Shown piece after piece: positions 6,754 to 34,510 of a DNA stretch of 64,000 nt. The notes below the pieces were generated by a model. It did not search any database and had not been told where the DNA came from. It saw only the letters and a program-made list of their open reading frames with translations. Position 1 is the first letter of the stretch. Each line of letters starts with the position of its first letter. The stretch spans positions 28,354-92,353 of IMG/VR virus record IMGVR_UViG_3300035210_000102. One strand, written 5' to 3'. A program made the position numbers and the translations under genes. Source of the DNA: a virus (Duplodnaviria > Heunggongvirae > Uroviricota > Caudoviricetes).

Positions 6754-7389
6754 ATGCCCGGCACCATCCCCAAGGATAAACGGGGCAGCAAAGGTCTCAC
6801 GTTTTCGCAAGATAAGTTCGCGAGGGCGCTGGTGCAGACCGGCACCTACCATGAAGCTTTCCTGATCGCTCGCCCCGAAACAGCCAAACCCCTTACACGT
6901 GCCGAACGTTCGATGCGCGGCCGGGTTTGGGCCAACTACCCGCCCGTCGCGAAGCGCATTGACCAAATGCGAGCACAAGCCCGCAAGCGCAACGATGACG
7001 TTGTCGACCGCCTCATTCACGAGCTCGCCGGCATCGCATTCTCCGACATCCGTGATGTTCTCGACTTCGACAAAGACGGCGTCACGATCAAGAATTCCGA
7101 AGACATCCCCGACAGCGTCGCGCGCACGATCTCCGAAGTTTCCAGTGATGGCGACAAAGTGAAGGTCAAACTGTACGACAAGCTAGCCGCGATCGATAAG
7201 CTGGGCAAGCACCTCGGAATGTTTGTCGAGCGCCGCGAGCTTACCGGCGCCGGCGGCAAAGACCTAATTCCCAAGCAAATGGACGATTTAGAGCTTGCCC
7301 GCCTTGTGGCCTTTCTGATGGGCAACGGCGAGCGGCAACAGGCGGCCTTGACCGTCATCGACACTGACAGCGAGACCGTCAATGAGTGA
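6754..7389 (+). CDS. terS: terminase small subunit
   Basis: LTFSQDKFARALVQTGTYHEAFLIA...RVL.ELAGIAFSDIRDV...KLYDKLAAIDKLGKHLGMF matches the P27/Terminase_2-type small-subunit pattern. Confidence 0.6.
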   Translation: MPGTIPKDKRGSKGLTFSQDKFARALVQTGTYHEAFLIARPETAKPLTRAERSMRGRVWANYPPVAKRIDQMRAQARKRNDDVVDRLIHELAGIAFSDIRDVLDFDKDGVTIKNSEDIPDSVARTISEVSSDGDKVKVKLYDKLAAIDKLGKHLGMFVERRELTGAGGKDLIPKQMDDLELARLVAFLMGNGERQQAALTVIDTDSETVNE

Positions 7390-7891
7390 ACAAGACAGCT
7401 ACTCAACCCGCATCTATACGGTGCCATTTGTCGCCTTTCCCGTCTCCACAACGGCCGGCGCTTCTTATTATGACTTGTGGGCCGGAACCGCGACGACCGT
7501 CGGCCGCGTCGAGCTGAAAGAGGTCAACCTCGGCCAGCTCTCAACGGCCACCGCCGGTAACCAACAACTCAATGTGCAAATCTATCGCGGCTCGACTGCG
7601 ATCGGCGGCGGCTCTGCCGTTACGCCGGTGAACTTGAAAGGCTGGGCGACAGCCCCGGCCGCGGGCACCATTGTAAATGCGCCAGCCGCAACCCTGTCTT
7701 CGACCGTCGCGGCCACCCTGGTCATCGCCGACAACACGGACTGGTCGGGCAACTGGGACTATAGGCCAGACGATTTCGAAGAGCTTACCATCGACACCGG
7801 GCAAAGCTTCTTTGTGCGCGTCTCGGCGCCTCCCATACTCACGTATCTGTCGGGCACCCTGAAGTTTAAGGAAGTCACGAAGACAAAATAA
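7382..7891 (+). CDS. Ser/Thr/Gly/Ala-rich structural-type protein (paralog family member)
   Basis: Low-complexity beta-type composition. Motif IYRGSTA is shared with ORF 22839 (IFRGSTA). Confidence 0.4.
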   Translation: MSEQDSYSTRIYTVPFVAFPVSTTAGASYYDLWAGTATTVGRVELKEVNLGQLSTATAGNQQLNVQIYRGSTAIGGGSAVTPVNLKGWATAPAAGTIVNAPAATLSSTVAATLVIADNTDWSGNWDYRPDDFEELTIDTGQSFFVRVSAPPILTYLSGTLKFKEVTKTK

Positions 7892-8739
7892 TGTGCGCCA
7901 ATTCCGTCCTCATCACTGGCGGCACCGGCACGCTCGGCAACGCGCTGGCCCGCCACATCCTCAATTACGACCTATCGGACCGCATTTGCATTTATAGCCG
8001 TGGCGAGCACGCCCAGGCTGAAATGCGCGAACGTTTCAACAATGACCCCCGCCTGCGCTGGTTTATCGGCGACGTGCGCGACGCCAGCCGGCTCCGGCGG
8101 GCTATGAACGGTGTCGATCTCGTTATTCACGCCGCCGCTCTCAAGCGCATCGAGGTCGGCTTCTACAATCCGCTCGAGATGGTCAAAACCAATGTCGACG
8201 GAACCGCTAATGTCATCGAAGCATCGCAAGATGCCGGCGTGTCCAAAGTTGTCTTTGTTTCCTCAGATAAGGCCTATCAGCCGGTTTCGGCCTATGGCTT
8301 TTCCAAGGCGCTCGGCGAGGCGCTGATTCTCGCCGCAAATAACACCACGGGAGACACTACGCGTTTTGCGGCGGTCCGCTACGGCAATGTCTGGGGCTCT
8401 AATGGGAGCGTCGTGCCGAAATGGCGGAACATGGTCGCCACCGGCGCGAAGGAAGTCCCTGTGACGGACCCCGATTGTACACGCTTTTTTATGCGAATCG
8501 ATCAGGCTGTTAACCTTGTGTTAGAGACGGCGCAGTCAATGATGGGTGGCGAACTCGCCATTCCTGATCTTCCCGCGTACCGGATGGGAGACCTCGCGCA
8601 AGCGTTCGGCGTAGGCCCTCGCGTAGTCGGACTTCCCCCGTGGGAAAAACGACATGAGGGCATGTCGGCCGACAAGACCAGCGACAAAGCCCGCCGCATG
8701 AGCGTTGACGAACTGCAAGCGCTTCTGAAGGCCGCATGA
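7891..8739 (+). CDS. UDP-GlcNAc 4,6-dehydratase/epimerase (PseB/CapD/FlaA1-like SDR, short form)
   Basis: ITGGTGTLG Rossmann motif, IYSRGEHAQAEM, FIGDVRD, VIHAAALK, SSDKAY...YGFSK (catalytic YxxxK). Confidence 0.7.
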   Translation: MCANSVLITGGTGTLGNALARHILNYDLSDRICIYSRGEHAQAEMRERFNNDPRLRWFIGDVRDASRLRRAMNGVDLVIHAAALKRIEVGFYNPLEMVKTNVDGTANVIEASQDAGVSKVVFVSSDKAYQPVSAYGFSKALGEALILAANNTTGDTTRFAAVRYGNVWGSNGSVVPKWRNMVATGAKEVPVTDPDCTRFFMRIDQAVNLVLETAQSMMGGELAIPDLPAYRMGDLAQAFGVGPRVVGLPPWEKRHEGMSADKTSDKARRMSVDELQALLKAA

Positions 8740-9449
8740 GCAACCCGTTCGACATCAATCGCGAGTTTGAGGCGGCGATCGGCCTGTACACCGGCTCGCC
8801 CTATGTTGTCGCGGTCAACAGCTGCACCTCTGCGCTGTTCCTTGCGCTCAAATGGCACGAGATGAACAAGTTCGGCCGGGATGATTTTGAAGAGATTTAC
8901 GACTGGCCTGTCACGGTGACCATTCCGAAACGCACCTACGTGTCAGTCCCGATGCAAATCAAGCTTGCTGGGCTGCGCCTCGCATTCGAGGACAAAGAAT
9001 GGTCCGGAATGTATCCGCTAAAGCCTTTCCGCATTTGGGATAGCGCCCGATGGTTCACGGCGGGGCTGTTCCATAAGGCCTGCACCACCGGCGGTGGCCA
9101 CCCCCACAACTATGTGTGTGTCAGCTTTCACAGCACCAAGACGCTCGGTATCAAGCGCCGTTGGGGCGATGAGTACCGTGAAGGCTGGGACATCGAGCAG
9201 GGCGGCGCCATCCTGCACAATGACGCCGCGGCCGACAAATGGTTCCGCCGCGCCCGCTTTGACGGTCGCACTGAAGGCGTACCTGCGGCGGAAGACACCT
9301 TCGATATGCTCGGCTACCACTGCTACATGAACCCGAGCACGGCGCGGTTGGGGTTGCAGTTGTTACGTCGGTTGCCAAAAGATAACCCCCCGCTCCCCAA
9401 CGACCCCTACCCCGATTTGAGTAAGGCGCCGATTTTCAAATACGCCTAA
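8736..9449 (+). CDS. DegT/DnrJ/EryC1-family aminotransferase-like protein (short)
   Basis: AVNSCTSALFLAL, SFHSTKTLG (PLP-Lys region) and GYHCYMNPSTARLGLQLL near the C-terminus. Confidence 0.45.
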   Translation: MSNPFDINREFEAAIGLYTGSPYVVAVNSCTSALFLALKWHEMNKFGRDDFEEIYDWPVTVTIPKRTYVSVPMQIKLAGLRLAFEDKEWSGMYPLKPFRIWDSARWFTAGLFHKACTTGGGHPHNYVCVSFHSTKTLGIKRRWGDEYREGWDIEQGGAILHNDAAADKWFRRARFDGRTEGVPAAEDTFDMLGYHCYMNPSTARLGLQLLRRLPKDNPPLPNDPYPDLSKAPIFKYA

Positions 9450-10429
9450 GCCGCCTTCTTGTGCGGCTTTTGTGGCGTCCTGACCTCTGGGTTCTCTATC
9501 TTCTCCTTCGCAAACAGCGCGCCTTCCCTGGTCAGCCACCATTCCTCGCCTTTTCGCACCAAAAGTTGCTTCTTCTCTTGGTTGGTGAGTAACCCGCTCA
9601 GCAGGCTTGGGTTGCCGCCATACCCCGTAAATCCGGCCTCCCTCAATTCCGCTGTGGTTTGCTGCCCATTTTTGTAGATGTAAATCAGCAGTGCATGATT
9701 CTGCGGAATTGCCGGCGCCGCCTCGACCTTTGCCACCGCCTGCACAGGTTCGGCCACCACCGGCACACTCGGCTCCGGCTCCGGCTCCGGCTCGGCTGGC
9801 CTCGGCTCAGGCTGCGCGACAACCTCTAACGGTTTCACAGTCGGCGCGGCCTCGATCAGCTTCGGCTCTGACTTCGATTCACTGTCGGCCCCGGCTACGC
9901 GAAGAAATCTGAATTTCCTGGTTGCATGCTCTTCCTCGACCGCCAAAAGGTCCAGGATTAGGCCCATTACCCGGCCGCTCACTTCCGTTTGTATGCGAAA
10001 CAGGCCACCTTCCCGCGCTTCCGTTGCTCTCGCGATTCGCTCAAGCGTAGGCTTCACATCGAGGATCAAGTCAACCAGGGCCTCGTGATCGTCCGCTAGT
10101 TGGTCGATACGGCTTTTGATTATATTGGCGGGCTCGGTTGTCGAAACGAGGCGGGGCATTTTTGTCACCCTCACCACTTTTTCTGCAGGCGATAACGGCT
10201 TGATGCCCCTCACTTTTAGTTGCCGCCGCACCTCACCCCTTACATTCATCCACGTTCGGCCATCAGAGGGTGTCGCGCTTGTTGTGACCACTCCCTCGTT
10301 CCCGTTATGCCGCCACCTTATTTGGTAGTGGCCGCCGCCCGTGTAATGGTGGTTGACGTCGACAACCCCGTATCGTCGGAATTCCTGCTTTATCCGGTCT
10401 ACATTCTCGTTGCCTGCTGCTGCAGCCAT
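9446..10429 (-). CDS. hypothetical protein with (PE)n linker
   Basis: Only sizeable minus-strand gene in the island. Start taken at the ATG giving MAAAAGNEN. The supplied ORF extends to a GTG at 10477. Encodes a PEPEPEP repeat. Confidence 0.4.
   Translation of the reverse strand: MAAAAGNENVDRIKQEFRRYGVVDVNHHYTGGGHYQIRWRHNGNEGVVTTSATPSDGRTWMNVRGEVRRQLKVRGIKPLSPAEKVVRVTKMPRLVSTTEPANIIKSRIDQLADDHEALVDLILDVKPTLERIARATEAREGGLFRIQTEVSGRVMGLILDLLAVEEEHATRKFRFLRVAGADSESKSEPKLIEAAPTVKPLEVVAQPEPRPAEPEPEPEPSVPVVAEPVQAVAKVEAAPAIPQNHALLIYIYKNGQQTTAELREAGFTGYGGNPSLLSGLLTNQEKKQLLVRKGEEWWLTREGALFAKEKIENPEVRTPQKPHKKAA
9771..9800. repeat. hexanucleotide microsatellite (ccggct)n encoding the PE repeat
   Basis: ctccggctccggctccggctcggct, read directly from the sequence. 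Confidence 0.6.
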
Positions 10430-10468
10430 GCGCCTTTCACTCCTTGCGCGTTGTGTGCATACCCTATG

Positions 10469-10491
10469 CAAATGCACGGAAAGTGCATTTG
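10469..10491. promoter_or_regulatory. perfect 9-bp inverted repeat, candidate operator
   Basis: caaatgcac-ggaaa-gtgcatttg lies in the divergent intergenic region. ttacgca/tgcgtaa repeats sit further downstream at ~10537-10588. Confidence 0.4.
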
Positions 10492-10580
10492 GCCCACTCT
10501 TCCACTCTGCTCATCTTTCGTCAACCACGCCTTGCGAATTACGCACCTTGCATTTGCCAAGCTGCCGAAAATTACGCAAA

Positions 10581-11285
10581 ATGCGTACTATGACAATGAC
10601 AGTAGCCATAGTAGAAGCCCGCCTGAGATCGAAGCGTCTCCCGTGCAAAACGCTCCTTCCGTTGCCCACAGCGCGCCTTGTTATTCAAGAGGTGCTGTAT
10701 CGCGCCAGCAAAATCAAAGGTGTCGACGTGGTCATCGCCGCTTTGGCTGACGATCCCGGAACAGATTTATTGTTGCCTTGGATTAGCTACTCCATTGACT
10801 TCGCCTACGACAGCCACGCAGCCAAGATCGGCGTTGTTCGTGGCCCCGAAAACGACGTTCTAAGTCGCGACTTACTTGCTGCAAAGCATGTGGGGGCCGA
10901 CACGATAATGCGCCTCACCTCAGACTGCCCCCTACTCGATCCAGTAATCTGCGGGCAGGTCTTAGAGGCCTATCGTGGCGGCTTCGTCGATTATTGTACG
11001 AACGCTTTTCCCCGCACTTGGCCGCGCGGTTATGACTGTGAAGTCTTCTCGATAGACCTTCTCGAGGAAGCCAACAAATACGGCGACGACCAATACCCCG
11101 ACAACCGCCAAGGCGTCGACGTTTGGATGCAAGCCAGCCCAGATGTGCGCCGCCTGAACATCACAGCCCCAGGTGAAAGCAGAGGACACATTCAGTGGTC
11201 ACTGGACGAGGAACCCGACTACGAGCGTATTGTCGCGGAATTCAATCGCCGCATAGCCGCTGGGGGCGATACGCTATGCGAGTAG
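10581..11285 (+). CDS. sugar-nucleotide cytidylyltransferase (PseF/NeuA/SpsF-like)
   Basis: N-terminal IVEARLRSKRLPCKTLLPL...LV.QEVL.RA matches the acylneuraminate cytidylyltransferase P-loop-like motif. Start chosen at MRTMTMTVAIVEARL. Confidence 0.55.
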   Translation: MRTMTMTVAIVEARLRSKRLPCKTLLPLPTARLVIQEVLYRASKIKGVDVVIAALADDPGTDLLLPWISYSIDFAYDSHAAKIGVVRGPENDVLSRDLLAAKHVGADTIMRLTSDCPLLDPVICGQVLEAYRGGFVDYCTNAFPRTWPRGYDCEVFSIDLLEEANKYGDDQYPDNRQGVDVWMQASPDVRRLNITAPGESRGHIQWSLDEEPDYERIVAEFNRRIAAGGDTLCE

Positions 11286-11367
11286 CTGAATTCGTCTTTT
11301 CCTTCGCTGTTGCGGTCGCAATCGGAAAAGCTTTTGCATACGCACTCTTGCCGACGCCGTTGATGCC

Positions 11368-11856
11368 ATGAAGCTCGTCCCCGTCGACCCGAAAAACAAG
11401 GCTCACGTGCGCTTCCTGTGGCGGCTACTCAGGACCCGGTTGGCAGTTTCCCGCATAAGCCATGACGGCAAGACCACCTGGAAACAGCACCAAGCGTTTG
11501 TCGCCAACCATCCTTACCATGATTGGTGCCTCGTTGAAGTAGCAAAAACAGGGCATTGGTGGAACTGGCCCCGCTACCCGCGCTTTGCAGGCGCCGCTTT
11601 CATCTCCATGCCGGCTAAACCAAGCGTTGTCGGCGATGAGCTGCATGTCGAGTTGCTGCCAAAACACCAAGGTCGCGGCCTCGCTGAAAAAGCACTGCTC
11701 GCCTTGATGAAGAAGCACCCCCGCAAGCGCTACGTGGCGAATGTCGCGCCCGGCAATCTCGGCTCATATTCTCTTTTTAACAAGATGGGCTTTCGCCTCT
11801 GCCAGTATACGCTGGAGCGCATTATCGACGAATATACGCCAGAGCGGGTAAAATGA
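11368..11856 (+). CDS. GNAT-family N-acetyltransferase (PseH-like candidate)
   Basis: Motif-A-like QGRGLAEKALLAL. Size matches the GNAT fold. Confidence 0.5.
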   Translation: MKLVPVDPKNKAHVRFLWRLLRTRLAVSRISHDGKTTWKQHQAFVANHPYHDWCLVEVAKTGHWWNWPRYPRFAGAAFISMPAKPSVVGDELHVELLPKHQGRGLAEKALLALMKKHPRKRYVANVAPGNLGSYSLFNKMGFRLCQYTLERIIDEYTPERVK

Positions 11857-12836
11857 TCCCGCATAACAAAGTCTTAACCACAGAGCAGGACATCGAAGCC
11901 CTTGTCCGCGTGGGGCGTTCGAACCAGCTTACCCAAGGCCCCGAAGTGGAAGCGCTCGAGGCAGAATACTGCGCCTACACCGGGCGCAAATATGCGGTTG
12001 CGGTGGGGAGCGGTTTAGCAGCCCTTCGTCTTGCGTTGCTGTGTCGTCGCGATCTCATCCCCACCGTGCCCGCATATTCCTGTGTCGCCCTGGCGAATGC
12101 CGCCTACAGCTATTCGGCCAAGCTTGGCATTGCTGACGCACTCCCGCTTTCCTGGACGCTTGACCCGAGCGACATTGGCGAATCGCCCGGCCAAACCGCC
12201 GTCGTCACAGTCAACACGTTTGGCGTGAAGGCACCGCTCCCGCGCGCCCCGCTTCTTGTAATCGAAGACTGCACGCACGGATTTGGCGATCATCGATCAG
12301 ACATTGAAGTCTTGAGCCTGCACGCCACGAAACTTGTTGGCGGCGCCGCCGGCGGCATGATTTTGACCGACGTGAAGACCTACGCCGACCAATGCCGCGA
12401 TCGGCGTGATTACGACGACAAGGCCAGCTCCGGCACACGCTTAAATGACAAGATGAGCGACATTCACGCCGCTTTGGCCCGCGCCAAGTTGGCTCGCCTG
12501 CCCGAACTTATTGAAGAGCGCGAAGAGCATGCTGCCGCATATCGTTGTGGTCTCGAGCATATTGACCCCGGCCTGCTCACGTTACCTTTGGGCGGCGACC
12601 GGACTTGGTATCGCTTTGTGATACGCACCAAGATGGAAGCACCTCTCCTACGCGCCGCCCTGCATCGTAAGGGTGTCGGCGCCGAACTTCCTATCGAGTG
12701 GTGGCCAGATGACAAAGCGCCCTACCCCGCCGCGCTCAACGCTTACCGGCGCAACGTTTCCCTCCCCCTTTATCCCGGGCTCTCCAAAGAGGCCCTTCAT
12801 CATGTCTGCAAGGCTGTATCGGAGATTATAGCGTGA
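11853..12836 (+). CDS. DegT/DnrJ/EryC1 PLP-dependent sugar aminotransferase (PseC/LegC-like)
   Basis: AVAVGSGLAALRLAL, D..H.FG, SLHATKLV (PLP lysine) and the typical C-terminal helical region. Confidence 0.7.
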   Translation: MIPHNKVLTTEQDIEALVRVGRSNQLTQGPEVEALEAEYCAYTGRKYAVAVGSGLAALRLALLCRRDLIPTVPAYSCVALANAAYSYSAKLGIADALPLSWTLDPSDIGESPGQTAVVTVNTFGVKAPLPRAPLLVIEDCTHGFGDHRSDIEVLSLHATKLVGGAAGGMILTDVKTYADQCRDRRDYDDKASSGTRLNDKMSDIHAALARAKLARLPELIEEREEHAAAYRCGLEHIDPGLLTLPLGGDRTWYRFVIRTKMEAPLLRAALHRKGVGAELPIEWWPDDKAPYPAALNAYRRNVSLPLYPGLSKEALHHVCKAVSEIIA

Positions 12837-12957
12837 CCTGGGTTCTCATCATCTTCCTGAGTAACTTCGCGACATCCGTCGATTTTGACTCAAAGGAAGC
12901 CTGCCATGCCGCGCAAAAGGCGATCACGCAAATCAAGAACGGCAACCCGTCCTCGGT

Positions 12958-13671
12958 GTGCGCCGCCAAAACTGGCTACCTCTATCCGATCAGGCGGGCA
13001 CAGTGACAAACGTTCTCTGCGTCGCCGCCCACCCCGACGATGAATCCCTCGGCTGCGGTGGCACACTCGCAAAACACGCCCTCAACGGCGACAATGTGTA
13101 CGTCATGTTCATGACCGACGGCGTCGGCGCCCGGCAACCCAACGATGACAGCTTGCAACAGCGCCGTGACGCTTCGATCAAGGCATGCCGCGCCCTCGGC
13201 GTGACGCCAATGTGGGCGAACACTCTGCTGCCCGATAACGCCATGGACTCCGTTCCGCTGCTCGAGGTCGTGCGGCGCATAGAGAAAGCGCCCTACCCTG
13301 CTCCCGACATCATATACACGCACCACGGGGGCGATTTAAACGTCGATCACGTCATAACCCACAAGGCGGTCATGACGGCGTTTCGACCAAAACCCGGCTC
13401 GAGCGTAAAGGCGATTTACTGCTTTGAAGTGCCGAGCTCGACGGAATGGGCGCCTAGCAGTTCACCGCAGTTCAATCCAAGACATCACGTCAACATCACC
13501 GGCGCACCCGGCGAGAAAAAAATCGAAGCCCTCAACGTTTACCGAATGGAGATGCTCGCATGGCCGCATGCGCGCTCCATGATGGGCATCCGTGCACTTA
13601 TGCAGTGGCGGGGCGCGAGCAGAGGATTTGACGCAGCAGAAGCGTTTGTAGTGGAAAGGTCAATCGCGTGA
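12958..13671 (+). CDS. PIG-L/LmbE-family N-deacetylase
   Basis: LCVAAHPDDESLGCGGTLAKH, the signature AHPDDE zinc-binding motif, plus downstream HxDH. Confidence 0.7.
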   Translation: MRRQNWLPLSDQAGTVTNVLCVAAHPDDESLGCGGTLAKHALNGDNVYVMFMTDGVGARQPNDDSLQQRRDASIKACRALGVTPMWANTLLPDNAMDSVPLLEVVRRIEKAPYPAPDIIYTHHGGDLNVDHVITHKAVMTAFRPKPGSSVKAIYCFEVPSSTEWAPSSSPQFNPRHHVNITGAPGEKKIEALNVYRMEMLAWPHARSMMGIRALMQWRGASRGFDAAEAFVVERSIA

Positions 13672-16092: not shown

Positions 16093-16106
16093 ACCTGCTC
16101 GCGCTG

Positions 16107-16415
16107 TTGCTCCTGGCAACAGCTTTTGTCGGCCCTGCCCGCGCTGAATGCGGCATCGCTTCGACCTATCACGAAGGCAGCCGCACGGCGAGCGGCGAGC
16201 ACTACAACCCCCATGGCATCTCAGCCGCTCACAGAACGCTTCCGTTCGGTAGTCGCGTCGTGGTTCGTAATCAGCGCACTGGACGCACAATCGAAGTCCG
16301 TATCAATGACCGCGGACCCTTCATTGCCGGACGCATCATCGATCTTTCAGCGGGCGCAATGCGCGCCCTGGCTGGCGCAGCAGGGCTGGTCCCCGTTTGC
16401 ATCGAGCGCCGCTAA
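16107..16415 (+). CDS. secreted RlpA-like double-psi beta-barrel (DPBB) protein
   Basis: Signal-peptide-like N-terminus, then GIASTYHEG..TASGE...AAH.TLPFGS.V.V.N..TGR...VRINDRGPF..GRIIDLS. Confidence 0.55.
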   Translation: MLLATAFVGPARAECGIASTYHEGSRTASGEHYNPHGISAAHRTLPFGSRVVVRNQRTGRTIEVRINDRGPFIAGRIIDLSAGAMRALAGAAGLVPVCIERR

Positions 16416-16470
16416 TCAGGCCCTGACCTGATCGCAAACTCCCAAACTCAGCCTACGACCTGATTATTTT

Positions 16471-16548: not shown

Positions 16549-16551
16549 GAT

Positions 16552-25422: not shown

Positions 25423-25426
25423 CCCC

Positions 25427-26008: not shown

Positions 26009-26023
26009 TGTAGACGCTGATTT

Positions 26024-28402
26024 ATGGCAATCGTCCTTGCCTCCGCATATAGCAGTGGGAACACGCTTCTAGCCCCTGGAACCGCGAGTTCCAGCTTTAC
26101 GCCGCCTAACAACTCCCTTGTTATTGTCGTTGCGCAAGCGCTAACCGCCAATCTTGCCAATTTAAGCACCGCGACGATTTCGGGCGGCAGCCTTAGTTGG
26201 ACGGTGCGGCATTCCCAGTTAAACCCTGTTTCCACAGCGGACCAGGGTGCCTGTATTGTTTGGACTGCCCCCGTGACAACGGGCGCGTCGATGACGGTTT
26301 CGGTTTCATTTGCCGGGTCGGCGCCCGCCGGCGTCAACATTTTCACCATTACCGGCTACAATACCTCTACTCCAGTTGGGGCCACCGCAACCGGCACGTC
26401 CACGGCTGCAGGTGCGGGATCGATTACCTTGTCCAGCGCCCCGGCCGCTACATCGCTTGTCATGGCCACGCAGGGATACTGCCCGGTCGGGGCCGGCAGT
26501 GCGCCAACACAGGGTTCCGGCTGGACTCAAAGCGCCACTCTTGTTAATGGCACCTTTTCCGGCGACATTCAGACACTATACGGTACAACATCAACCACTG
26601 TGCCGTGGGTGGCGTTGTGCGGCAGCGATGCCGTTGCTAACAACGCGGCGGGCCAACTTGCCCTTGAGTTTCTTGGCTTGGGCGGCATCGGCACCGCAAC
26701 CATTACGACTTCGGCCACCGCTGTCGGTTTACCCCTCGCTTCCGGCGGTTCGACGGTCTCTATTCAGACAGCCGTCGCCGGCGCCGGAAGCGCAATAAAG
26801 GGAGCGCCGCAATACTGGAGCGGTGCGCTTGGCGATGGTCCGCTCGGGTCCGGCGTACTCGGTACAGCTGACCTATCCGGCGATATCTCGGCTGGCGGGT
26901 CAGCGCCTGCGGCTGGCACGGTCGCAATCGCGGCAACAGCCAGCGCGACCGGCAGCGAAACAGCGGCTTCTAGTACAACTTCACCCATTACGACCGCTGC
27001 GACTGCCATCGGAGCGGCGCTGACGGCGACGGTTGGCGCCGCTCCGCTCACAACAACCGCATCCGCGGCAAGCTCATTCAATATTATGGTCGCTGGCGCG
27101 GGGTCCTGCGCTTGTGCGACATCCGCGACCGCGATCGGCTCGGAACTGGATAGCGCTGCAGGCTCTGTCGCGCTGGCGACAACAGCAAGCGCAACCTCCT
27201 CGGAAATAACCGGCGGAGCGGGCTCTTCGGCGATCGTCACTGTGGCGACAGCGGCAAGCACATCCGGTGCAGCCGCCAGTGGTGCCGGCTCTTCCACTAT
27301 AACAACGGCAGCTTCGGCCGTAGGTGCCGAAACTCAAAGCACTGCCGGCTCTGCCTTGATCGCACTTGCGGCAACCGCGGCCGGCGGCGCCTCGGCATCC
27401 TCGGCCATTTCAACCACTGCGTCTGCGGTAGGCGCCGAAACTCAAAACGCCGCCGGTACAGGGGCGGTTTCAACCGCTGCCGCAGGCGCCAGTAGCGAAC
27501 TTATCGCGGCCTCCGGAACGGCTTCGATATTGACGTCCGCGGCAGCGCTCGGCACAGAGACCGCTTTAACTGCTGGCACGGCGACGATCACAACAACGGC
27601 CACGGCGACTGGTGCGGCCACTTCTGCTGGGCAATCGGTTGGAACCGTTTCGGTTTCAACGACCGCCGCAGCTGTCGGCGCAGAAAGCGCAAAAGCCGCC
27701 GGGTCCGCGGATATTACAACTGTGGCGACGGCCGGAGAGACGACGTCTATCAGCGCTTCCGGGATAGCCGCAATTGTTACCGAAGCGACCGCGGCCGGAA
27801 GTGCCACAAAGTCGGCCATAGGTGTAGCCACCCTTTCGACAACGCAAGCCGCCACCGGCGTTGTATCTGCCGGCGCCGCCGGCAGTGCGGCAATTCTGAC
27901 TTCAGAGGCCGCAAGCACAGAGAGTGCGTTTTCGGCGACCGGGTCGGCCGCAATCACGTTTTTGGCTACAGCAAATGGACAGGCGACAGCAAACAGCGGC
28001 GCCGGGTCCTCTGCGATCAGCACAAGCGCTACAGCGGAAGGGTTGGAGACAAAGGATGCTATTGCCCTTCCTCCACCGATCGGGAAGCCTCTCGGCTCGG
28101 TCCCTGGCGGCGTGCGCAACGTCAATCCCGAAGGCGAGCAGAAAAAGAAACGGCGCAAGCCGAAGCTTATCAGGGCGATTTCGCAAACTGTCGCCCCCTC
28201 CGAGCCAACCGCCGAAGCACCATCCATTGACCATCCTGGCCCCAATCGGGATGCCTCCCCCTCCGAGCCGACCGCCAAAACACTACCCATCGACTATTTC
28301 GACCCCAATCGGGATGTCGCCGCAATTTTGCGGGTCTTGCCACCCGACGTGGGCGATGACGATGATGAAGCGATGGCGTTGATTTTGGCTCTTGCTGCCT
28401 AA
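26024..28402 (+). CDS. fiber/decoration-like protein with ~16 tandem ~20-aa A/S/T/G repeats
   Basis: The N-terminal domain resembles the N-terminus of ORF 29513. The central part is built of GS.AI.T.ATA.G.ET...A repeats. The C-terminus carries a duplicated PSEPTA...PNRD module. Confidence 0.5.
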   Translation: MAIVLASAYSSGNTLLAPGTASSSFTPPNNSLVIVVAQALTANLANLSTATISGGSLSWTVRHSQLNPVSTADQGACIVWTAPVTTGASMTVSVSFAGSAPAGVNIFTITGYNTSTPVGATATGTSTAAGAGSITLSSAPAATSLVMATQGYCPVGAGSAPTQGSGWTQSATLVNGTFSGDIQTLYGTTSTTVPWVALCGSDAVANNAAGQLALEFLGLGGIGTATITTSATAVGLPLASGGSTVSIQTAVAGAGSAIKGAPQYWSGALGDGPLGSGVLGTADLSGDISAGGSAPAAGTVAIAATASATGSETAASSTTSPITTAATAIGAALTATVGAAPLTTTASAASSFNIMVAGAGSCACATSATAIGSELDSAAGSVALATTASATSSEITGGAGSSAIVTVATAASTSGAAASGAGSSTITTAASAVGAETQSTAGSALIALAATAAGGASASSAISTTASAVGAETQNAAGTGAVSTAAAGASSELIAASGTASILTSAAALGTETALTAGTATITTTATATGAATSAGQSVGTVSVSTTAAAVGAESAKAAGSADITTVATAGETTSISASGIAAIVTEATAAGSATKSAIGVATLSTTQAATGVVSAGAAGSAAILTSEAASTESAFSATGSAAITFLATANGQATANSGAGSSAISTSATAEGLETKDAIALPPPIGKPLGSVPGGVRNVNPEGEQKKKRRKPKLIRAISQTVAPSEPTAEAPSIDHPGPNRDASPSEPTAKTLPIDYFDPNRDVAAILRVLPPDVGDDDDEAMALILALAA
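26890..28060. repeat. intragenic degenerate ~60-bp tandem repeat array
   Basis: Protein-level periodicity of ~20 aa across ~390 aa. Confidence 0.55.
28194..28319. repeat. 63-bp direct tandem duplication (x2)
   Basis: ccctccgagcc(a/g)accgcc... is repeated with period 63. Confidence 0.6.
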
Positions 28403-28887
28403 TGAAAGAAAGCCGTCGCATGGGTTTGATCAACGAACATGCCCTAACTCACCGCGAAGACTATTTGACTGCGCGATACTGCATTCGTCTGGGCCCAGAC
28501 GTGAGCTATGACGATCTCTTCATCCCGAAGAACTGGGCGAAATGCAACAAACAGATGCACCCCTACGATGTAATCAGGGTGATTGGTCATAATGATGAAT
28601 TCGACGTTGAATTGACCGTCACGCTAATTACGCCAGCTGGCGCAACCATGCGCTTGCGCCACAAGCTACCAGGGCAAAGCGACACGGAGCGAACGTTTGT
28701 GCCAGCTCCTCCAGAGGTTCGTTTGCAGTTCACCGCGGCGACCCGCTGGCGACTCCTTGGCGTCGGCAACGAAGAAATCAAGCGCGGAATGTCGAAGCCG
28801 GAAGCTGATGTCGAACTTCAGCAATACCTTAAGGACGCCGGCCTGTACCTGCTTAATCCGATTTCCGCAGAAGAGGTTATCGAATGA
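28402..28887 (+). CDS. hypothetical protein
   Basis: 161-aa ORF with a start/stop overlap. Confidence 0.35.
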   Translation: MKESRRMGLINEHALTHREDYLTARYCIRLGPDVSYDDLFIPKNWAKCNKQMHPYDVIRVIGHNDEFDVELTVTLITPAGATMRLRHKLPGQSDTERTFVPAPPEVRLQFTAATRWRLLGVGNEEIKRGMSKPEADVELQQYLKDAGLYLLNPISAEEVIE

Positions 28888-29516
28888 CGTATGCGGTTTC
28901 CAATCCTCCATTCCTGGCAGTCCCAGCTTTGGCCGGCGGCGCCAGCGGAAGCAACAAGGGTGGCAACATCTGGGTCTACAGATCGACAGATTCGATCCCA
29001 GCCGTTGTGGCCCCTTATTACTTTTCCAATGGCGCGCTCGAGGGCATGCAAGTCAGTGACGTTGTAGTCGTCATTGACACCGCAACGCCAGCCATCGCCA
29101 TTTGCAGCGTCGTGAACGCCTCTCTTTCCCTTGGCGTTTCCGTACAGCTATCCCAGGAAGCGTCCGGACTATTCGGCCCGCTCTACGTGACCAATACGCG
29201 AGCGTCGAACGGCACCGCCGGGAACATCACGCTTACAGACGCTGACGCGGGTTGTCTGATTGTGCAAGCGTCGACTGACACATCATCTCGCACCGTAACG
29301 ATTGCCAAGGGGCTCAACGCTGGCGCGCGTGCATTTCACCTTTATTCGGAACCAAGCGCTGGCGGGCTTGTCGTGACACCGGCTGCCGGCGTTACTTTGC
29401 AAAGAGCGGACGGAACGGGCGCGGTTGCGAATGCAACATTAGCTGCCGGCAGTGACGCCACCATTATGCACGTGCGCGCTGAGATTTACAAAATAACGGG
29501 AAGCTCGCTGTCATGA
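28884..29516 (+). CDS. Ser/Thr-rich protein, paralog of ORF 34196
   Basis: Shared N-terminal motif L.VPALAGG...GN.W.YR.TD.I..V....YF..G. Confidence 0.45.
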   Translation: MTYAVSNPPFLAVPALAGGASGSNKGGNIWVYRSTDSIPAVVAPYYFSNGALEGMQVSDVVVVIDTATPAIAICSVVNASLSLGVSVQLSQEASGLFGPLYVTNTRASNGTAGNITLTDADAGCLIVQASTDTSSRTVTIAKGLNAGARAFHLYSEPSAGGLVVTPAAGVTLQRADGTGAVANATLAAGSDATIMHVRAEIYKITGSSLS

Positions 29517-31288
29517 CCGGCGTTGTGACCGCCGCCGCGGCAGGCCCATCGACAATTGGCGTCACTCTGCCCGTAACCCCCGTCTGCACCTATGTTGGCA
29601 GTGCAACCTTCCCGGCCGTAGCGACGTCATGCACATACTCGGCGGCTCCAGTAGGAACGCCAGACGCCAATCGTGTTGCGGTGGCTGTCGTCACTCTTAA
29701 CGGTGAGGGCACTGTAACCATATCGAGTGTGACCATCGGCGGCGTTGCGGCGACACAAGCAGTCTACACGCAAGGGTCGACGGTAACTCACGCCGCACAA
29801 GGCATCTATTACGCATCGCTGCCTACGGGCACAACGGCCGACGTAGTCGTCACACCGTCTGCAGCTGTCGGCTATTATGTCGGTGTCGACGTCTACACGA
29901 TCACGGGCGGCGCTGTTTCGTTCGTATCCGGCACGTCAACCACTACGCCGGGCGACCGATGGGATGCGACATACTCTGTCACGACGCCGGCGGCGGGAGT
30001 TGCGATTTTCGGCGTGGCCGGCGCGGACAACTACGCTATTGACACAAACCTTATTACATGGAGCGGCGCGACCAAAGACCTTTACACCCACCCTGGAAAT
30101 TACATGAACCGATCGGTGGCGCACCTTGCGACACCCGAGGCGCTCACCAGTTTCCCCGTCGTCGTGGACTCGACAAACAACGCCGTGAGCACTTTTGGGC
30201 ATGGGCACACGCAGGCGGTTTTTCAGGTCAATACCGGAACCTACATTGCTCGCCTTCCGCGTGCATCCGACGCTACCCGCATTTCGTTTACAACTGAAGG
30301 TTCAACCTTTGCGCCAATGATCACCACGACGGGATCGCAGCTGATTGTCTGGCAATTCAGCGACGGCAGCGTCTCCGCCATTGGTGCTCCATCAAAGAAT
30401 TTCGGGTCTTCCAGCCAGCGGAAACACACCCTGTACGTTAAGCCTTGGTCCGCGCTGACAGACATCAACGTCGGCTATGACGCTGCAGACGGCGGCACCA
30501 ATACAATTCCCTTGCTGACGCAACAAAACGTATCTGCCGTTAGCGGCCTTCAGCTTGCTAAAACGTCTTTAAAAACGTGGGCGTCAAACTACAACCCCAT
30601 TACGCAGCTCGATTTCTCCAACTTCTCTGCCATCACCGACATAGAGTGCTATGGGTGTTCGTCTCTTACATCCATAAATCTAACCGGAACATCCGCAGTG
30701 AAGCGCGTTGCTGTAGAAGGCGGCCGGTTAACATCCTTGGACCTGAGTCAGTCCCCTCTTTTGGAAGACCTTCGCGGCGCGGTGCAGACCAGCGCGTCGT
30801 ATCATATCAATTGGGGGGCGACCGGCACACACTCATGGCACGTGTGCATTCGCGATAACCCCCAGTTTACAGGCGATCTCCCATTGCCGCAATTGACGGC
30901 TGTCTCCCAGCTGTGGATTTGGGGCATGGGGCTGAGTGGCACCCTGACCCCGAATTCAAATTTCCTCACAAGCGTGCTGGCGCATTATAACAATTACACG
31001 AGTGCAAACTTTTCCGGAAGGTTTGCCGCCGGCACCAACGCTCAGCTGCAAATGGATCACAACCAGCTCACGAGCATAAACATAGACAATTGCCCGGGCC
31101 TGAGCTGGGTTATTCTTCAGAATAACAACTTTAACCAAGCGGCCGTCGACTACATTCTAGCGACGCTGGACTCATACAACACAAATAATGGCACGCTTAA
31201 TATTGCAGTTAACTCCGTGCCATCCGCAACAGGCATAACCCACGCGAACAATCTAACCGCAAGGGGTTGGACTATTACCCGCGACTAA
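29513..31288 (+). CDS. virion-associated protein with C-terminal leucine-rich-repeat (LRR) domain
   Basis: The C-terminal ~250 aa show LxxLxLxxNxLT periodicity (LTSINLTG..., LTSLDLSQSPLLEDL, LTSINIDNCPGLSWVILQNNNF). The N-terminus is S/T-rich, like ORF 26024. Confidence 0.5.
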   Translation: MTGVVTAAAAGPSTIGVTLPVTPVCTYVGSATFPAVATSCTYSAAPVGTPDANRVAVAVVTLNGEGTVTISSVTIGGVAATQAVYTQGSTVTHAAQGIYYASLPTGTTADVVVTPSAAVGYYVGVDVYTITGGAVSFVSGTSTTTPGDRWDATYSVTTPAAGVAIFGVAGADNYAIDTNLITWSGATKDLYTHPGNYMNRSVAHLATPEALTSFPVVVDSTNNAVSTFGHGHTQAVFQVNTGTYIARLPRASDATRISFTTEGSTFAPMITTTGSQLIVWQFSDGSVSAIGAPSKNFGSSSQRKHTLYVKPWSALTDINVGYDAADGGTNTIPLLTQQNVSAVSGLQLAKTSLKTWASNYNPITQLDFSNFSAITDIECYGCSSLTSINLTGTSAVKRVAVEGGRLTSLDLSQSPLLEDLRGAVQTSASYHINWGATGTHSWHVCIRDNPQFTGDLPLPQLTAVSQLWIWGMGLSGTLTPNSNFLTSVLAHYNNYTSANFSGRFAAGTNAQLQMDHNQLTSINIDNCPGLSWVILQNNNFNQAAVDYILATLDSYNTNNGTLNIAVNSVPSATGITHANNLTARGWTITRD

Positions 31289-31300: not shown

Positions 31301-31651
31301 GTGACACAGCAGACTTTCTGGCGGCCCAAACAGCACCCTTGGCTTCCGCCCGACCACGATCAAGGAGTGGTCTATGCCTATCGTGCACTGGTTGAAGGCG
31401 TAGCGAATGCCGGGCAGCAAAAGCTGTTCGTCGAATACCTCAAATACATAACAGACCAGGATGTTCTTTCGTATCGCCCTGGCTCCGACCGCGACAGCGC
31501 CTTCGCGGAGGGTAAGCGGTTTGTCGGCCTCGAACTGGCCAAGCTGCTACATCCACTGATGACACCACCAAGCAAATCGCGGGCAAGGCCACTCGCACTC
31601 GCACAAGAGCGTTTGCGCGCCAAGTACCAAAGGGAAACCCCAAATGAGTAA
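31301..31651 (+). CDS. hypothetical protein
   Basis: 116-aa ORF. Confidence 0.3.
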   Translation: MTQQTFWRPKQHPWLPPDHDQGVVYAYRALVEGVANAGQQKLFVEYLKYITDQDVLSYRPGSDRDSAFAEGKRFVGLELAKLLHPLMTPPSKSRARPLALAQERLRAKYQRETPNE

Positions 31652-31919
31652 ATCAAAAGAAACGGCGAAGCCCACCAAAGATGGCGGGCATGACGACTAT
31701 CAGGCCCACTCCGACCTCCATACCATGATCGAGCACGCTAAAATTCACAAAGACCCAAAGCGGAAGAAAGCCGCAATGGCAAAACATGCGGAGATGTTGG
31801 CCGCACTGCAGGCCGTCGCCGCTCAAGCCCAGCAACCCCAACAACAACAAATGCCACCCGAAGGCGCAGCGCCCCCGGTTGCCCCGGCTGGCCCAACCGC
31901 TAATGGTGGAGCTTACTAA
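31644..31919 (+). CDS. hypothetical protein
   Basis: 91-aa basic/Q-rich ORF overlapping the previous stop. Confidence 0.3.
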   Translation: MSKSKETAKPTKDGGHDDYQAHSDLHTMIEHAKIHKDPKRKKAAMAKHAEMLAALQAVAAQAQQPQQQQMPPEGAAPPVAPAGPTANGGAY

Positions 31920-31921: not shown

Positions 31922-33079
31922 ATGGCCGATGCCGAAGATTTCTCGCTGGATGACCTGACCCTCCTTAATGAAGGAACGCCCGACAACCCAAAGCCGGACA
32001 CGCCGGCCGAGGACAAGCCCGCCGACCCAGCGCCCTCCCAAGAGCAAAAGGAAGATGCACCGGCTGCCGAAGACAAACCCGCTGCGCAAGATGCCAAACC
32101 GGCCGCGAAACCGAGGTCCACATCGATCTTGGATGACGCCGATGGCGAGGACGCGCCGGCCGAGGGAAAAGCGGACGAAAAGCCCGGCGACAAGCCCGTT
32201 ACTGCCGACGAAGACCCCAAATGGCGCGAAGCTTTTGCGGACAAGCTTCTCGAGCGGCTGAAAGACAAACTTCCGGCCGACAAGTTGGAGGGACGGCGAA
32301 AGGCTATCTTGAACCAGCTCGGCCGCTATCGCAGCAGCTTCGACTACATGGTGAGCGGCTTCTCTGCACAGGAACGTATCCGCGCTGGCGATCTCCGCTC
32401 TCAGTTGCCGGCCGACGCCAGCGATGACGAAAAGGCGGCGTGGCGCGAAGAGAACGGCCTGCCGGCCGCCCCCAAAGACTACGACTTCCCCAAGGTTGCC
32501 GGGCACAAGTGGACCGACGCCGACGCGCCCTACATCGACAGCTTCAAAGAACTGGCCTATGCGGAGAACATGTCGCAAAGCCAGCTGAATAAAGCTGCCG
32601 CTTGGTACGCCGACACGATCGCAAAACAGCAAGCCGCATATTGGGAAACCGCCCAGGTGACCGACGCCGAGGACGGCGACAAAATGCGTGAGATACTGCG
32701 CGCCGAGCTTGGGCCAGCTGACTACAAGCCCACCGCCGCGCTCGTGCGCCGTTTTCTCGAAGACCCGGCTATGATGGGCGAGTCCGCGCGGACGGCATTC
32801 ACGCAGGCGCGCTGGACCGACGCCAATGGCGTCTCGCACAAACTGATCAATGACCCGGACGTGCTGCGCATCATTATCGATGCAGCCAGAAACACCTACG
32901 GCGATGCCAGCTTCATTCGAGGTGACGCGCGAACCCAGTCGCAAAACGACATCGAAGAGGGCGAGCGGCTCATGAACACGAACATCGACGAGTATTGGCG
33001 GGGCGGCTGGGACAAGAAAATTGCGGACGCCCGCGAGGCTCTGGAAGCCCAATCACGCGGCCGACGCAGAGCCGCATAA
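31922..33079 (+). CDS. scaffolding-like protein (acidic, helical)
   Basis: Very acidic, Pro/Ala/Lys-rich N-terminus. Sits immediately upstream of the capsid gene. Confidence 0.4.
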   Translation: MADAEDFSLDDLTLLNEGTPDNPKPDTPAEDKPADPAPSQEQKEDAPAAEDKPAAQDAKPAAKPRSTSILDDADGEDAPAEGKADEKPGDKPVTADEDPKWREAFADKLLERLKDKLPADKLEGRRKAILNQLGRYRSSFDYMVSGFSAQERIRAGDLRSQLPADASDDEKAAWREENGLPAAPKDYDFPKVAGHKWTDADAPYIDSFKELAYAENMSQSQLNKAAAWYADTIAKQQAAYWETAQVTDAEDGDKMREILRAELGPADYKPTAALVRRFLEDPAMMGESARTAFTQARWTDANGVSHKLINDPDVLRIIIDAARNTYGDASFIRGDARTQSQNDIEEGERLMNTNIDEYWRGGWDKKIADAREALEAQSRGRRRAA

Positions 33080-33343
33080 TACATGTATTCCTAGATTTAA
33101 TTAGTGGCTGTGAGATTTAATTCACGGCCACCCTTAGTCCCTTTTCCAAAAGTGACAGTCGACGCGCCCGGCCACCCTGCTTTGCAGCCCCGCACACGCA
33201 ACGACACAAACTACCAGCCAACAAGTAGCGCCCCTGAACACGCGCAAGCGGCCCCGTAAGGATACCCCGCAACGTGCGCCATTACGGCCACCCTCTACTC
33301 ACGGCTCGAAAGCAACCCATCGTTCCCCTCTAGTATTGGAGAA
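33080..33343 (+). promoter_or_regulatory. AT-rich intergenic region with direct repeats (candidate late promoter for capsid gene)
   Basis: The locally AT-rich stretch contains agatttaatt twice. A strong ggag RBS precedes the capsid ATG. Confidence 0.25.
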
Positions 33344-34183
33344 TTGACCATGGCTGACTCAGCCTTCGTCACCCAGTACCGCAAGGAACACATTGCAGCG
33401 TTCGAGCAGACTTATTCTCTCCTGCGCGCGACGTGTGTTCGCGAAGCGGTTATAAAGGGCAATCAGGCAGTATTCCTGGTAGCCGGCTCTGGCGGTATGG
33501 CCGCCACATCTCGCGGCGTCAATGGATACATTCCATTCGCGACCGTTAGCAACGTGCAAAGCACAGTAACGCTTACCGAATTCCATTCGGCATTTGAGCG
33601 CACTGGCTTCAATATTTTTGCGTCTCAGGGTGATCAGAAAAAGATCATGCAATCGGCTTCGGTTGCAGTCCTGAACCGAAATATTGATGCTGTGATTACC
33701 GCACAGCTCGACACGGCCACCACAACCACAGGCACTGCCACCACGGCTAATTTGCCTATGGTTATCCACGCACGTAGTATCCTCGGCAACAACGCCGTCC
33801 CGCTTTGGGAAGAGGATAATATGTTTGCGATCATCACACCGGCGTTTGAAGGTTATCTCATGCAGGCCACAGAATTCGCTTCTGCGGACTATGTAGAGGT
33901 TAAACCTTTTGCTGGTCCCGCAAAGCAAATGCGGCGCTGGATGGGCGTAAATTGGTTCGTGCATCCCAACCTCACCGGAAAGTCGACTACAAGTGAGAAA
34001 TGTTACATGTACCACAAGAACTCTATTGGCCATGCTGCAAACAGCACGGAAATGGACGTAAAGGTGGACTATGAAGCAAAACAGGACTTGTCCTGGTCTC
34101 GCGCTAGTCTTTTCCATGGCTCGCTGTTGCTGCAACAGACTGGTATTGTCCAGATGCTGCACGATGGCTCGGCTTACGCATAG
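33344..34183 (+). CDS. major capsid protein (candidate)
   Basis: Strong RBS, a 264-bp upstream leader and two rho-independent terminators downstream. The size and position are typical of a highly expressed coat gene. Confidence 0.5.
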   Translation: MTMADSAFVTQYRKEHIAAFEQTYSLLRATCVREAVIKGNQAVFLVAGSGGMAATSRGVNGYIPFATVSNVQSTVTLTEFHSAFERTGFNIFASQGDQKKIMQSASVAVLNRNIDAVITAQLDTATTTTGTATTANLPMVIHARSILGNNAVPLWEEDNMFAIITPAFEGYLMQATEFASADYVEVKPFAGPAKQMRRWMGVNWFVHPNLTGKSTTSEKCYMYHKNSIGHAANSTEMDVKVDYEAKQDLSWSRASLFHGSLLLQQTGIVQMLHDGSAYA

Positions 34184-34195
34184 GAGGGCTAGACT

Positions 34196-34510
34196 ATGGC
34201 TACTTGGCTGACTACCGGCTCTACAACGCCCCACCTCTTGGTGCCGGCGCTTGCGGGCGGCTTCACACCCGGTTCCACTCTCGACTTCATCGGGACTGGC
34301 GGCAACGTGTGGGCATATCGCACAACCGACACCATCACGCAGATTGTTGGTTCGCAGTATTTCACGGACGGCTTCCGCCGTGGCATGCGCAAATACGACC
34401 TTGTGTCGCTTCTGGACGTGACCACACCACGCGCGACTTGGAGCTATGTCTCCGCGCTGTCGACTGTGTCGACTGGCGGCGCGACGGTTACGCTTTTCTC
34501 GAGCACATAA
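34196..34510 (+). CDS. small Ser/Thr-rich protein, paralog of ORF 28884 (possible decoration protein)
   Basis: LLVPALAGG..G.NVWAYRTTDTI motif. Lies directly after the capsid gene and before a terminator. Confidence 0.45.
   Translation: MATWLTTGSTTPHLLVPALAGGFTPGSTLDFIGTGGNVWAYRTTDTITQIVGSQYFTDGFRRGMRKYDLVSLLDVTTPRATWSYVSALSTVSTGGATVTLFSST

Follow-up and report, generated by a model that had tools for sequence, protein, structure and literature searches.

RESULTS

Eight Ser/Thr-rich ORFs from at least six families

The DNA considered here is a stretch of 64,000 nucleotides (nt) from a virus of the class Caudoviricetes (positions 28,354 to 92,353 of IMG/VR record IMGVR_UViG_3300035210_000102; hereafter the window, whose numbering we use throughout). 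Our subject is a set of eight open reading frames (ORFs) in it, each named by its first nucleotide, whose products are rich in Ser, Thr, Gly, and Ala (S/T/G/A). All eight lie on the plus strand, as do the other genes described below unless stated otherwise, and they are the most S/T/G/A-rich genes of the window, with S+T+G+A fractions of 0.42 to 0.62 versus approximately 0.19 to 0.40 in the majority of the remaining 49 predicted genes; comparable values occur elsewhere only at 43401-43880 (0.45, Ala/Gly-rich, not Ser/Thr-rich) and 62716-63045 (0.46). A first-pass annotation had listed these ORFs with seven correct starts and one, 16646, that is out of frame (the real ATG is at 16645), and had interpreted them as paralogs, at least eight in number, belonging to one dispersed family. 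With a probability of about 0.65, we instead regard them as encoding unrelated virion-surface proteins, namely, two capsid decoration proteins, a beads-on-a-rope fiber together with a jelly-roll partner, and other fibers or adhesins.

All-versus-all alignment does not bear out a family of eight. BLASTP recovers a single related pair, 28884 and 34196 (45% identity over 80 amino acids; E value of 5e-16), and Smith-Waterman scores measured against 200 composition-preserving shuffles yield a z score of 19.7 for this pair, whereas none of the remaining 27 exceeds 2.7. The short motifs on which the supposed kinship had been based (IYRGSTA/IFRGSTA and L.VPALAGG...N.W.YR.TD) are both found in the sequence. 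A distant relationship between 7382 and 22839 through the shared “RGSTA” was considered and rejected, given a shuffle z score of 2.1 and an hhalign probability of 0.25% when the family alignment of 7382 (61 sequences) is compared with that of the gp80 family to which 22839 belongs (34 sequences); the IYRGSTA/IFRGSTA motif is a coincidence of composition. Nor does jackhmmer join the N-terminal domains of 26024 and 29513, for which a two-sequence BLASTP comparison gives only a nonsignificant E value of 0.022. The eight ORFs thus fall into at least six unrelated families, and their shared composition reflects an architecture of small-residue-rich beta-strands and turns, not common descent.

A podophage genome with two inserted islands

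The window is a podophage genome with a T7-like gene order, its plus strand being tiled by phage genes that include the small terminase (TerS; 6754-7389; Pfam Terminase_2), the large terminase (TerL; 18098-19666), the portal (20110-22827), a scaffold-region gene (31922-33079), the major capsid protein (33344-34183; phrog_3437, 5.7e-57; Pfam Phage_capsid_2, 1.3e-28), the adaptor/tubular protein A (35438-36079), a tailspike with a Peptidase_S74 chaperone domain (37447-40047), and the nozzle (40051-42981), downstream of which lie internal proteins and a 4,710-amino-acid (aa) DarB-like giant. No close cultured relative was detected when 20 kb was compared with phage genomes by megablast, and tblastn with the capsid protein returned only matches of 26% identity; a search of PDB chains linked neither the capsid protein nor the adaptor to a solved structure by sequence.

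In 16 related IMG/VR loci, which were reached through the capsid protein, the TerS and TerL genes are adjacent, and the order that follows is portal, scaffold, major capsid protein, a small 34196-like gene, adaptor, and nozzle. Because the terminases adjoin each other and the portal directly precedes the scaffold gene in these relatives, the two blocks that separate them in the window, island 1 (7382-18097, between TerS and TerL) and island 2 (22839-31288, between portal and scaffold), are lineage-specific insertions into the structural operon. Seven of the eight S/T/G/A-rich ORFs sit in these islands, and the eighth, 34196, is a core gene. This arrangement agrees with the earlier placement of one ORF directly after the capsid gene. 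The two ORFs that were said to lie inside the sugar gene cluster of island 1, however, only edge it: 7382 is situated between the TerS gene and a PseB-like gene, and 16645 follows WbqC, a DPBB gene, and a tRNA-Met.

Putative capsid decoration proteins

The core gene 34196 (34196-34510) encodes a putative head decoration protein of 104 aa and begins 12 nt past the stop codon of the major capsid gene. It is followed by a conserved 244-aa gene (34685-35419, kept in loci L001 to L006) and then by the adaptor gene. Nearly all relatives examined carry a homologue of 91 to 104 aa after the capsid gene, with a conserved N terminus (MAY..NPP.L) and core (GYFTNG..LGM..D.V). A profile search recovered 448 homologues of 34196, all of them unannotated, among which are prophage proteins of Mesorhizobium and Ruegeria. 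The profile had to be built from relatives, as a word-indexed search with 28884 alone returned only 28884 itself.

The position of 34196 is that of the head decoration protein of Legionella phage LME-1 (ALK43931.1; PDB accession number 9EG4, chain H), whose gene, in a genome that is also T7-like in order, lies between those for the capsid and adaptor proteins (PMC12407071). In LME-1, two hexons and a penton are held together by the trimeric base of the protein, whose distal part projects outward, and its describers note that the protein resembles no earlier decoration protein (PMC12407071). Since the gene slot agrees, as the fold appears to (a confident structure model was obtained), the first-pass suggestion that the ORF after the capsid gene specifies a decoration protein is supported for 34196, and it plausibly extends to the second copy, 28884. 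We consider it rather probable that 34196 is an LME-1-type capsid decoration protein, which by analogy with LME-1 would be present as a trimer where capsomers meet.

The second copy (28884-29516, 210 aa) combines an N-terminal part of approximately 90 aa that is homologous to 34196 with an additional C-terminal domain of approximately 120 aa. Both proteins match phrog_18004, and a hidden Markov model (HMM) of the decoration family matches 28884 with an E value of 2.7e-26; no full-length homologue of 28884 was found by tblastn against phage genomes or by the word-indexed search. Directly upstream of it is a 161-aa paralogue of 34685 (28402-28887; BLASTP E value of 5e-13), which is not Ser/Thr-rich; both members of this second family match phrog_26742 (family HMM, 6.6e-57 for 28402), and the 34685 family has no sequence match in the PDB. 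The genome therefore holds the same two-gene unit twice, in reversed gene order and with 29 to 45% identity, a combination that suggests uptake from another phage rather than recent duplication. Under the reading that we favor, 28884 would be a diverged decoration protein with an added, outward-facing domain that arrived together with a copy of its neighbor gene.

Shared with LME-1, then, are the slot immediately behind the major capsid gene within a T7-like gene order and the division into a base and an outward-projecting part, provided that 28884 is organized as proposed. In contrast, 34196 would correspond to the base only, the phage has two copies, and an extra conserved gene (34685) intervenes between the decoration and adaptor genes. 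Several results weigh against the assignment: Foldseek does not recover the LME-1 protein for 34196, no sequence-level link connects the decoration family with LME-1, and the capsid proteins of the two phages are not detectably related by sequence. The same absence of a structural or sequence match lends some weight to the alternative that 34196 and 28884 are another kind of small morphogenetic protein, such as a head-completion protein or assembly factor, or a small PUA/ASCH-like barrel whose role involves nucleic acid. This alternative sits less easily with a gene position identical to that in LME-1 and with strict conservation beside the capsid gene across relatives and prophages, and we hold it to be a serious but lesser possibility.

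A gp80-like protein as proposed bead

The first gene of island 2, 22839 (22839-23297, 152 aa), starts 11 nt past the portal gene and matches Pfam PF23140 (“Podophage GP4 fiber I protein gp80”) with 39.5 bits (cutoff of 27; E value of 8.6e-10). A profile of its family (34 homologues) matches the solved chain 8jou_a with an E value of 1.2e-7; this chain corresponds to gp80 of the Ralstonia podophage GP4 (AXG67775.1, the 80th gene), a correspondence drawn from the length of 140 aa, the name of the molecule, and the order of the genes and not from a sequence comparison. By these profile matches, 22839 is a member of the GP4 Fiber I (gp80) family, and we propose it as the bead of a neck fiber. Homologues were retrieved from 47 IMG/VR loci, which collapse into 32 clusters at 90% identity. 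In two of these loci, L047 (5233-5664) and L048 (5176-5607), whose capsid protein is 55% identical to that of the present phage, the gp80-like gene directly follows the nozzle, i.e., it occupies the tail-fiber slot, so that the module moves between positions.

The architecture of such fibers has been described (PMC12609058 and PMC11445570): monomers of the Fiber-1 or whisker protein dimerize, and the dimers wrap, “like beads on a string,” around an extended polypeptide, the “rope,” which runs through a groove and completes each monomer's incomplete beta-sandwich. In GP4, a protein of its own serves as the rope; it carries five dimers and is anchored by an Ig-like fiber-tail adaptor of 93 aa (PMC12609058 and PMC11445570, on Zheng et al., J Mol Biol 2023; PDB 8JOU). 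The collar-whisker complex of the myophages Bas63 and Sf14 is built on the same principle, with whisker dimers wrapping a rope-like polypeptide that completes the beta-sandwich; there, however, the rope is an N-terminal extension of the collar protein and carries only two dimers, and the relation of the whisker to gp80 is structural only (PMC12609058).

The repeat protein 26024 as candidate rope

The proposed rope of the present phage is the 792-aa product of 26024 (26024-28402), which consists of a globular N-terminal domain (residues 1 to 215; nt 26024-26668), some 17 to 23 degenerate repeats of 20 residues (residues 222 to 681; nt 26687-28066), and a C terminus (nt 28067-28402) that is rich in Pro and Lys and includes a KKKRRKPK patch, two copies of a 21-aa Pro-rich repeat (placed by Tandem Repeats Finder at 28194-28316), and an acidic hydrophobic tail; this C terminus could be an anchoring segment. 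Identity at a lag of 20 residues is 0.27 versus a background of approximately 0.15, and an iterated repeat HMM finds 17 units at 20-aa spacing with the consensus AGSxAIxTxATAxGxETxxA. Within the repeats, Ile, Val, or Leu recurs at fixed alternating positions and Pro is absent; together with the 20-residue register, these features exclude a mucin-like disordered O-glycosylation region. A search of PDB chains revealed no sequence link between the repeats and solved structures.

Several lines of comparison tie proteins of this type to gp80-like genes. The N-terminal domain of 26024 is 40% identical to proteins encoded beside gp80-like or 7382-like genes in L039 and L077 to L079. More broadly, 14 of the 32 gp80-like clusters possess a same-strand ORF with a period of 19 to 22 or 38 to 44 residues (z score of at least 6 versus shuffles, among ORFs within the fetched flanks; a number of the other loci break off near the gp80-like gene), and this ORF is downstream in all but one of the 14. 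Among 29 loci lacking gp80, period-20 ORFs occur only in L077 to L079, which hold the same module, and the two other periodic ORFs have periods of 24 and 27. Locus L060, in which the module occupies the same portal-scaffold slot as island 2, encodes in turn a gp80-like protein, a 231-aa ORF, a 7382-like ORF, and a protein with 20-aa repeats, and in the cultured Microcystis phage Mae-JY04, a 625-aa protein beginning 7 nt after the gp80-like gene has a globular N-terminal domain and approximately 16 repeats of 20 residues, an architecture that equals that of 26024.

GP4 itself conforms to this pattern. Its gp79 (325 aa; L081, 10948-11925; MH638294, 57947-58924), which directly follows gp80 and is annotated as virion associated, has a period of 20 (z score of 7.1) and comprises approximately 10 units of the form G-x3-[IVL]-x-[LIM]-x3-G. 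As 10 units would accommodate 10 monomers, or the five reported dimers, we infer that gp79 is a candidate for the GP4 rope.

We therefore propose a model, to be read as conditional throughout, in which 22839 and 26024 build a “beads-on-a-rope” neck fiber. The beta-sandwich that a gp80-like monomer leaves incomplete would be filled by a threaded beta-strand, with every 20-residue repeat of 26024 contributing one such strand to one monomer, and one 40-residue double repeat would hold one dimer of 22839, such that 17 to 23 repeats would correspond to approximately 8 to 11 dimers per fiber, about twice the five reported for GP4. The likeness to GP4 lies in the membership of 22839 in the gp80 family, in the 20-residue-periodic protein that accompanies the gp80-like gene in both phages, and in the giant DarB-like virion protein that both encode. 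The differences are that the putative rope of the present phage is a 792-aa protein with a fused N-terminal globular domain and about twice as many repeats, that its gene does not adjoin the bead gene, that the module resides between portal and scaffold and not in the tail-fiber block, and that the genes for the capsid, portal, and tail have no near match and are not of the GP4 type.

The role of 26024 as a rope, the stoichiometry, and presence in the virion are what we infer from these comparisons, and certain points count against them. The gene is located 2.7 kb downstream of 22839, the window yielded no Ig-like collar or fiber adaptor (the small ORFs 19781-20110, 31301-31651, and 31644-31919, inspected as collar candidates, have no informative matches), and gp79 of GP4 is absent among PDB chain sequences. 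It is also conceivable that 26024 forms a self-assembling shaft or adhesin, e.g., a beta-solenoid or trimeric beta-helix whose turns comprise 20 residues, and that its co-occurrence with gp80 merely reflects shared fiber clusters. Repetitive Gly/Ala/Ser/Thr-rich shafts are common in phage fibers, the repeat protein of L037 has a large, tailspike-like C-terminal globular domain, 26024 and gp79 of GP4 lack sequence similarity, and 26024 does not adjoin 22839. We nonetheless find a shaft doubtful, as the period is specifically 20 or 40 across very divergent sequences, the repeat ORF is usually immediately downstream of the gp80-like gene, and in GP4, the sole case with a solved structure, gp80 is followed by a period-20 protein whose unit count fits the five reported dimers.

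Other fiber-type and orphan ORFs

The threaded-fiber module may have a further component in 7382 (7382-7891), a 169-aa single jelly-roll protein of an uncharacterized family whose members neighbor the fiber module in other phages. It would probably bind or cap the bead-rope module, an assignment weakened by the 15 kb that separate 7382 from the other module genes and by a fold too generic for a role to be assigned. No relatives of 7382, or of the N-terminal half of 29513, were found in the viral contigs searched.

Starting 3 nt after 22839, ORF 23301 (23301-24281) encodes a short tail-fiber-like protein of 326 aa with a fiber N-terminal domain and a C-terminal tip domain. Its residues 6 to 98 and 112 to 326 match the N and C termini, respectively, of proteins of 565 to 834 aa in L067 to L072 (best-segment identity of 34 to 43%), two of which carry collagen-like Gly-X-Y repeats. 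On the strength of these alignments, 23301 is predicted to be a short fiber in which an attachment domain is joined to a tip domain, the latter of which would be receptor binding. The 591-aa product of 29513 (29513-31288) joins a beta-rich N-terminal half to a leucine-rich-repeat (LRR)-like C-terminal half, its matches being weak (Pfam LRR_4, subthreshold at an E value of 8.6e-4 and 19.9 bits against a cutoff of 27; weak phrog_7816), and it is possibly an LRR-like adhesin. The last of the eight, 16645 (16645-17163), is an orphan Ser/Thr/Gly-rich protein of 172 aa, with a GGAGG Shine-Dalgarno sequence 7 nt upstream and a GC content at third codon positions (GC3) of 0.69; it has no Pfam or PHROG match and no relatives in viral or metagenome scans, and the one lead is a weak match to a bulb lectin (E value of 0.0058). 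Both 16645 and the N-terminal half of 29513 are unexplained by our reading of the eight ORFs, which counts against it.

The islands contain additional genes of interest in this context. The 304-aa protein at 17183-18097 has homologues upstream of gp80-like genes in L023 and L045, with no family or PDB match. Embedded among the fiber genes of island 2 are a glycosyltransferase (GT)-like gene (24128/24332-24889; phrog_1574, 9.8e-27; phrog_12406 “glycosyltransferase,” 1.5e-5; weak Anp1) and an S-adenosylmethionine (SAM)-methyltransferase gene (24802-25422; Pfam Methyltransf_11, 25 bits against a cutoff of 21.2), which are followed by a DUF4376/tail-fiber-like protein of 193 aa (25427-26008; Pfam DUF4376, 30.9 bits against a cutoff of 25; phrog_10508 “tail fiber protein,” 1.2e-6).

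Sugar genes and the question of virion glycosylation

Island 1 harbors a pseudaminic-acid biosynthesis cluster (7891-16092) between TerS and TerL, on the plus strand apart from one minus-strand ORF. Its genes specify PseB-like, PseC, and PseI proteins, a cytidylyltransferase, a GNAT protein, a PIG-L deacetylase, a SAM-methyltransferase, and WbqC. PseI scores 354 bits (NCBIfam cutoff of 340), and PseB and PseC score 299 and 119 bits, respectively, both below the equivalog cutoffs; with CTP_transf_3, GNAT, and NeuB domains encoded in the cluster, genes for the biosynthesis of a cytidine monophosphate (CMP)-nonulosonic acid donor are present. The sole minus-strand ORF (9446-10477) encodes a 343-aa protein that contains a PEPEPEP linker and whose N terminus matches phrog_2053/2089, and the product of 8736-9449 matches DegT over its first ~40 residues only.

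We think it unlikely, at the present state of the evidence, that the phage attaches its own CMP-pseudaminic acid to its own Thr/Ser-rich surface proteins (decoration proteins, beads, rope, and other fibers) to yield a pseudaminylated virion. Were it to do so, the transferase would be of a non-Maf type, e.g., the GT-like protein 24128-24889 or 17183-18097. No Maf domain (PF01973) was found in the approximately 49 window proteins scanned with Pfam, the 4,710-aa giant among them (the scan covers the window and did not extend to eight small ORFs of 80 to 159 aa, one of which, 43401-43880, was scanned with PHROG only); the searches brought up no other clear protein glycosyltransferase either, and the Maf-type system postulated initially thus finds no counterpart in these proteins.

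Flagellin O-glycosylation with pseudaminic or legionaminic acid is performed by Maf or FlmG transferases (bioRxiv 10.1101/2022.03.25.485807). The donor pathway of PseB, PseC, PseI, and a cytidylyltransferase is shared by this phage, but the candidate acceptors are phage proteins instead of flagellin. FlmG measures approximately 600 aa, and no protein of that size uniting tetratricopeptide repeats with a GT domain is predicted in the window. A second precedent is offered by mycobacteriophages, whose glycosyltransferases reportedly modify capsid and tail-tube subunits (a finding attributed to Freeman and coworkers in 2023). Sugar-handling genes beside structural genes and Ser/Thr-rich surface proteins are features in common with that system, from which the present case differs in that the sugar would be a nonulosonic acid and in that no matching transferase was identified.

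Composition, which had been read as a sign of glycosylation, does not discriminate. Mean S+T+G+A fractions are 0.44, 0.42, and 0.51 among homologues in the decoration, 7382, and gp80 families, respectively, against 0.48, 0.42, and 0.55 for the members in the window; no sugar gene is encoded within the fetched flanks of the 63 loci that were obtained through capsid and gp80-like genes. Because homologues from loci without nearby sugar genes are equally rich in S/T/G/A, the composition is a family trait and provides no evidence of glycosylation.

The first-pass view as a whole, in which a paralogous family with Ser/Thr-dense surfaces is O-glycosylated through the phage's nonulosonic-acid pathway and a Maf-type transferase, has in its favor a complete-looking pseudaminic-acid gene set within the late operon and the GT-like and methyltransferase genes among the fiber genes. 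The Ser+Thr fractions of 34196 (0.30 versus a family mean of 0.22) and 22839 (0.31 versus 0.24) also lie at the upper end of their families. The phage, moreover, carries a tRNA-Thr(UGU) (5287-5362) in addition to the tRNA-Met (16471-16548), and Thr accounts for 14.2% of codons in the eight ORFs versus 5.8% elsewhere, with a 2.7-fold higher demand for ACA (36.8 versus 13.5 per 1,000) and an unchanged share of ACA among Thr codons. Set against these observations are the 27 of 28 pairs that are not paralogous, the composition shared with homologues lacking sugar genes in their fetched flanks, the missing Maf domain, the strict 20-residue periodicity of 26024 (at odds with mucin-like disorder), and the equally plausible use of the sugar island in remodeling the host surface, and we consider this view very unlikely. 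On the narrower question of virion pseudaminylation, the evidence neither supports nor excludes it, and host-surface remodeling explains the island equally well.

That some of the eight ORFs are spurious, wrong-frame readings in a genome of 55 to 63% GC with many overlapping ORFs, as the missing homologues of 16645 might suggest, is scarcely credible, given homologues or profile-family (Pfam/PHROG) matches for seven of the eight, GC3 values of 0.60 to 0.72 that fit real coding frames throughout, a gapless tiling of the plus strand, the strong Shine-Dalgarno sequence at 16645, and an independent gene caller that called the same ORFs in island 2.

Further features of the window

Three additional features deserve mention. 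The portal protein is 905 aa long, and its relatives and family models align only to the first ~550 to 570 residues, leaving an unexplained C-terminal extension of ~350 aa. The interval 36076-37412, between the adaptor and tailspike genes, is coded on the minus strand and holds an SPFH/Band-7 gene together with a small ORF. The DarB-like giant (47396-61528) unites N6-methyltransferase/Eco57I-like, AAA_34 plus Helicase_C_4 (Strawberry-notch-type), and FtsK-gamma domains; its counterpart in GP4 is 3,224 aa in length.

DISCUSSION

Family memberships, gene order, repeat periodicity, and co-occurrence are the observations on which we regard the eight S/T/G/A-rich ORFs as unrelated virion-surface proteins; against this reading stands the circumstance that the proteins' presence in virions is deduced from their genes. 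The case illustrates that similar composition implies neither paralogy nor status as a glycosylation target, and it suggests concrete roles for genes that databases leave as “hypothetical.” For capsids, the recently described LME-1 decoration fold would be extended to approximately 450 unannotated proteins, including those of Mesorhizobium and Ruegeria prophages.

The most useful new point is the association, across many phages, of a gp80-like gene with a partner of period 20 or 40. About half of the sampled gp80-like lineages have a periodic partner, which suggests that the “beads-on-a-rope” fiber of GP4 is widespread and not a curiosity. If this is true, the 20- or 40-residue period of the partner would set the length of the fiber by counting binding sites, a rule that could be of use in annotating and engineering phage appendages. 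With its adjoining pseudaminic-acid island, the phage is also a good candidate in which to look for nonulosonic-acid glycosylation of virions.

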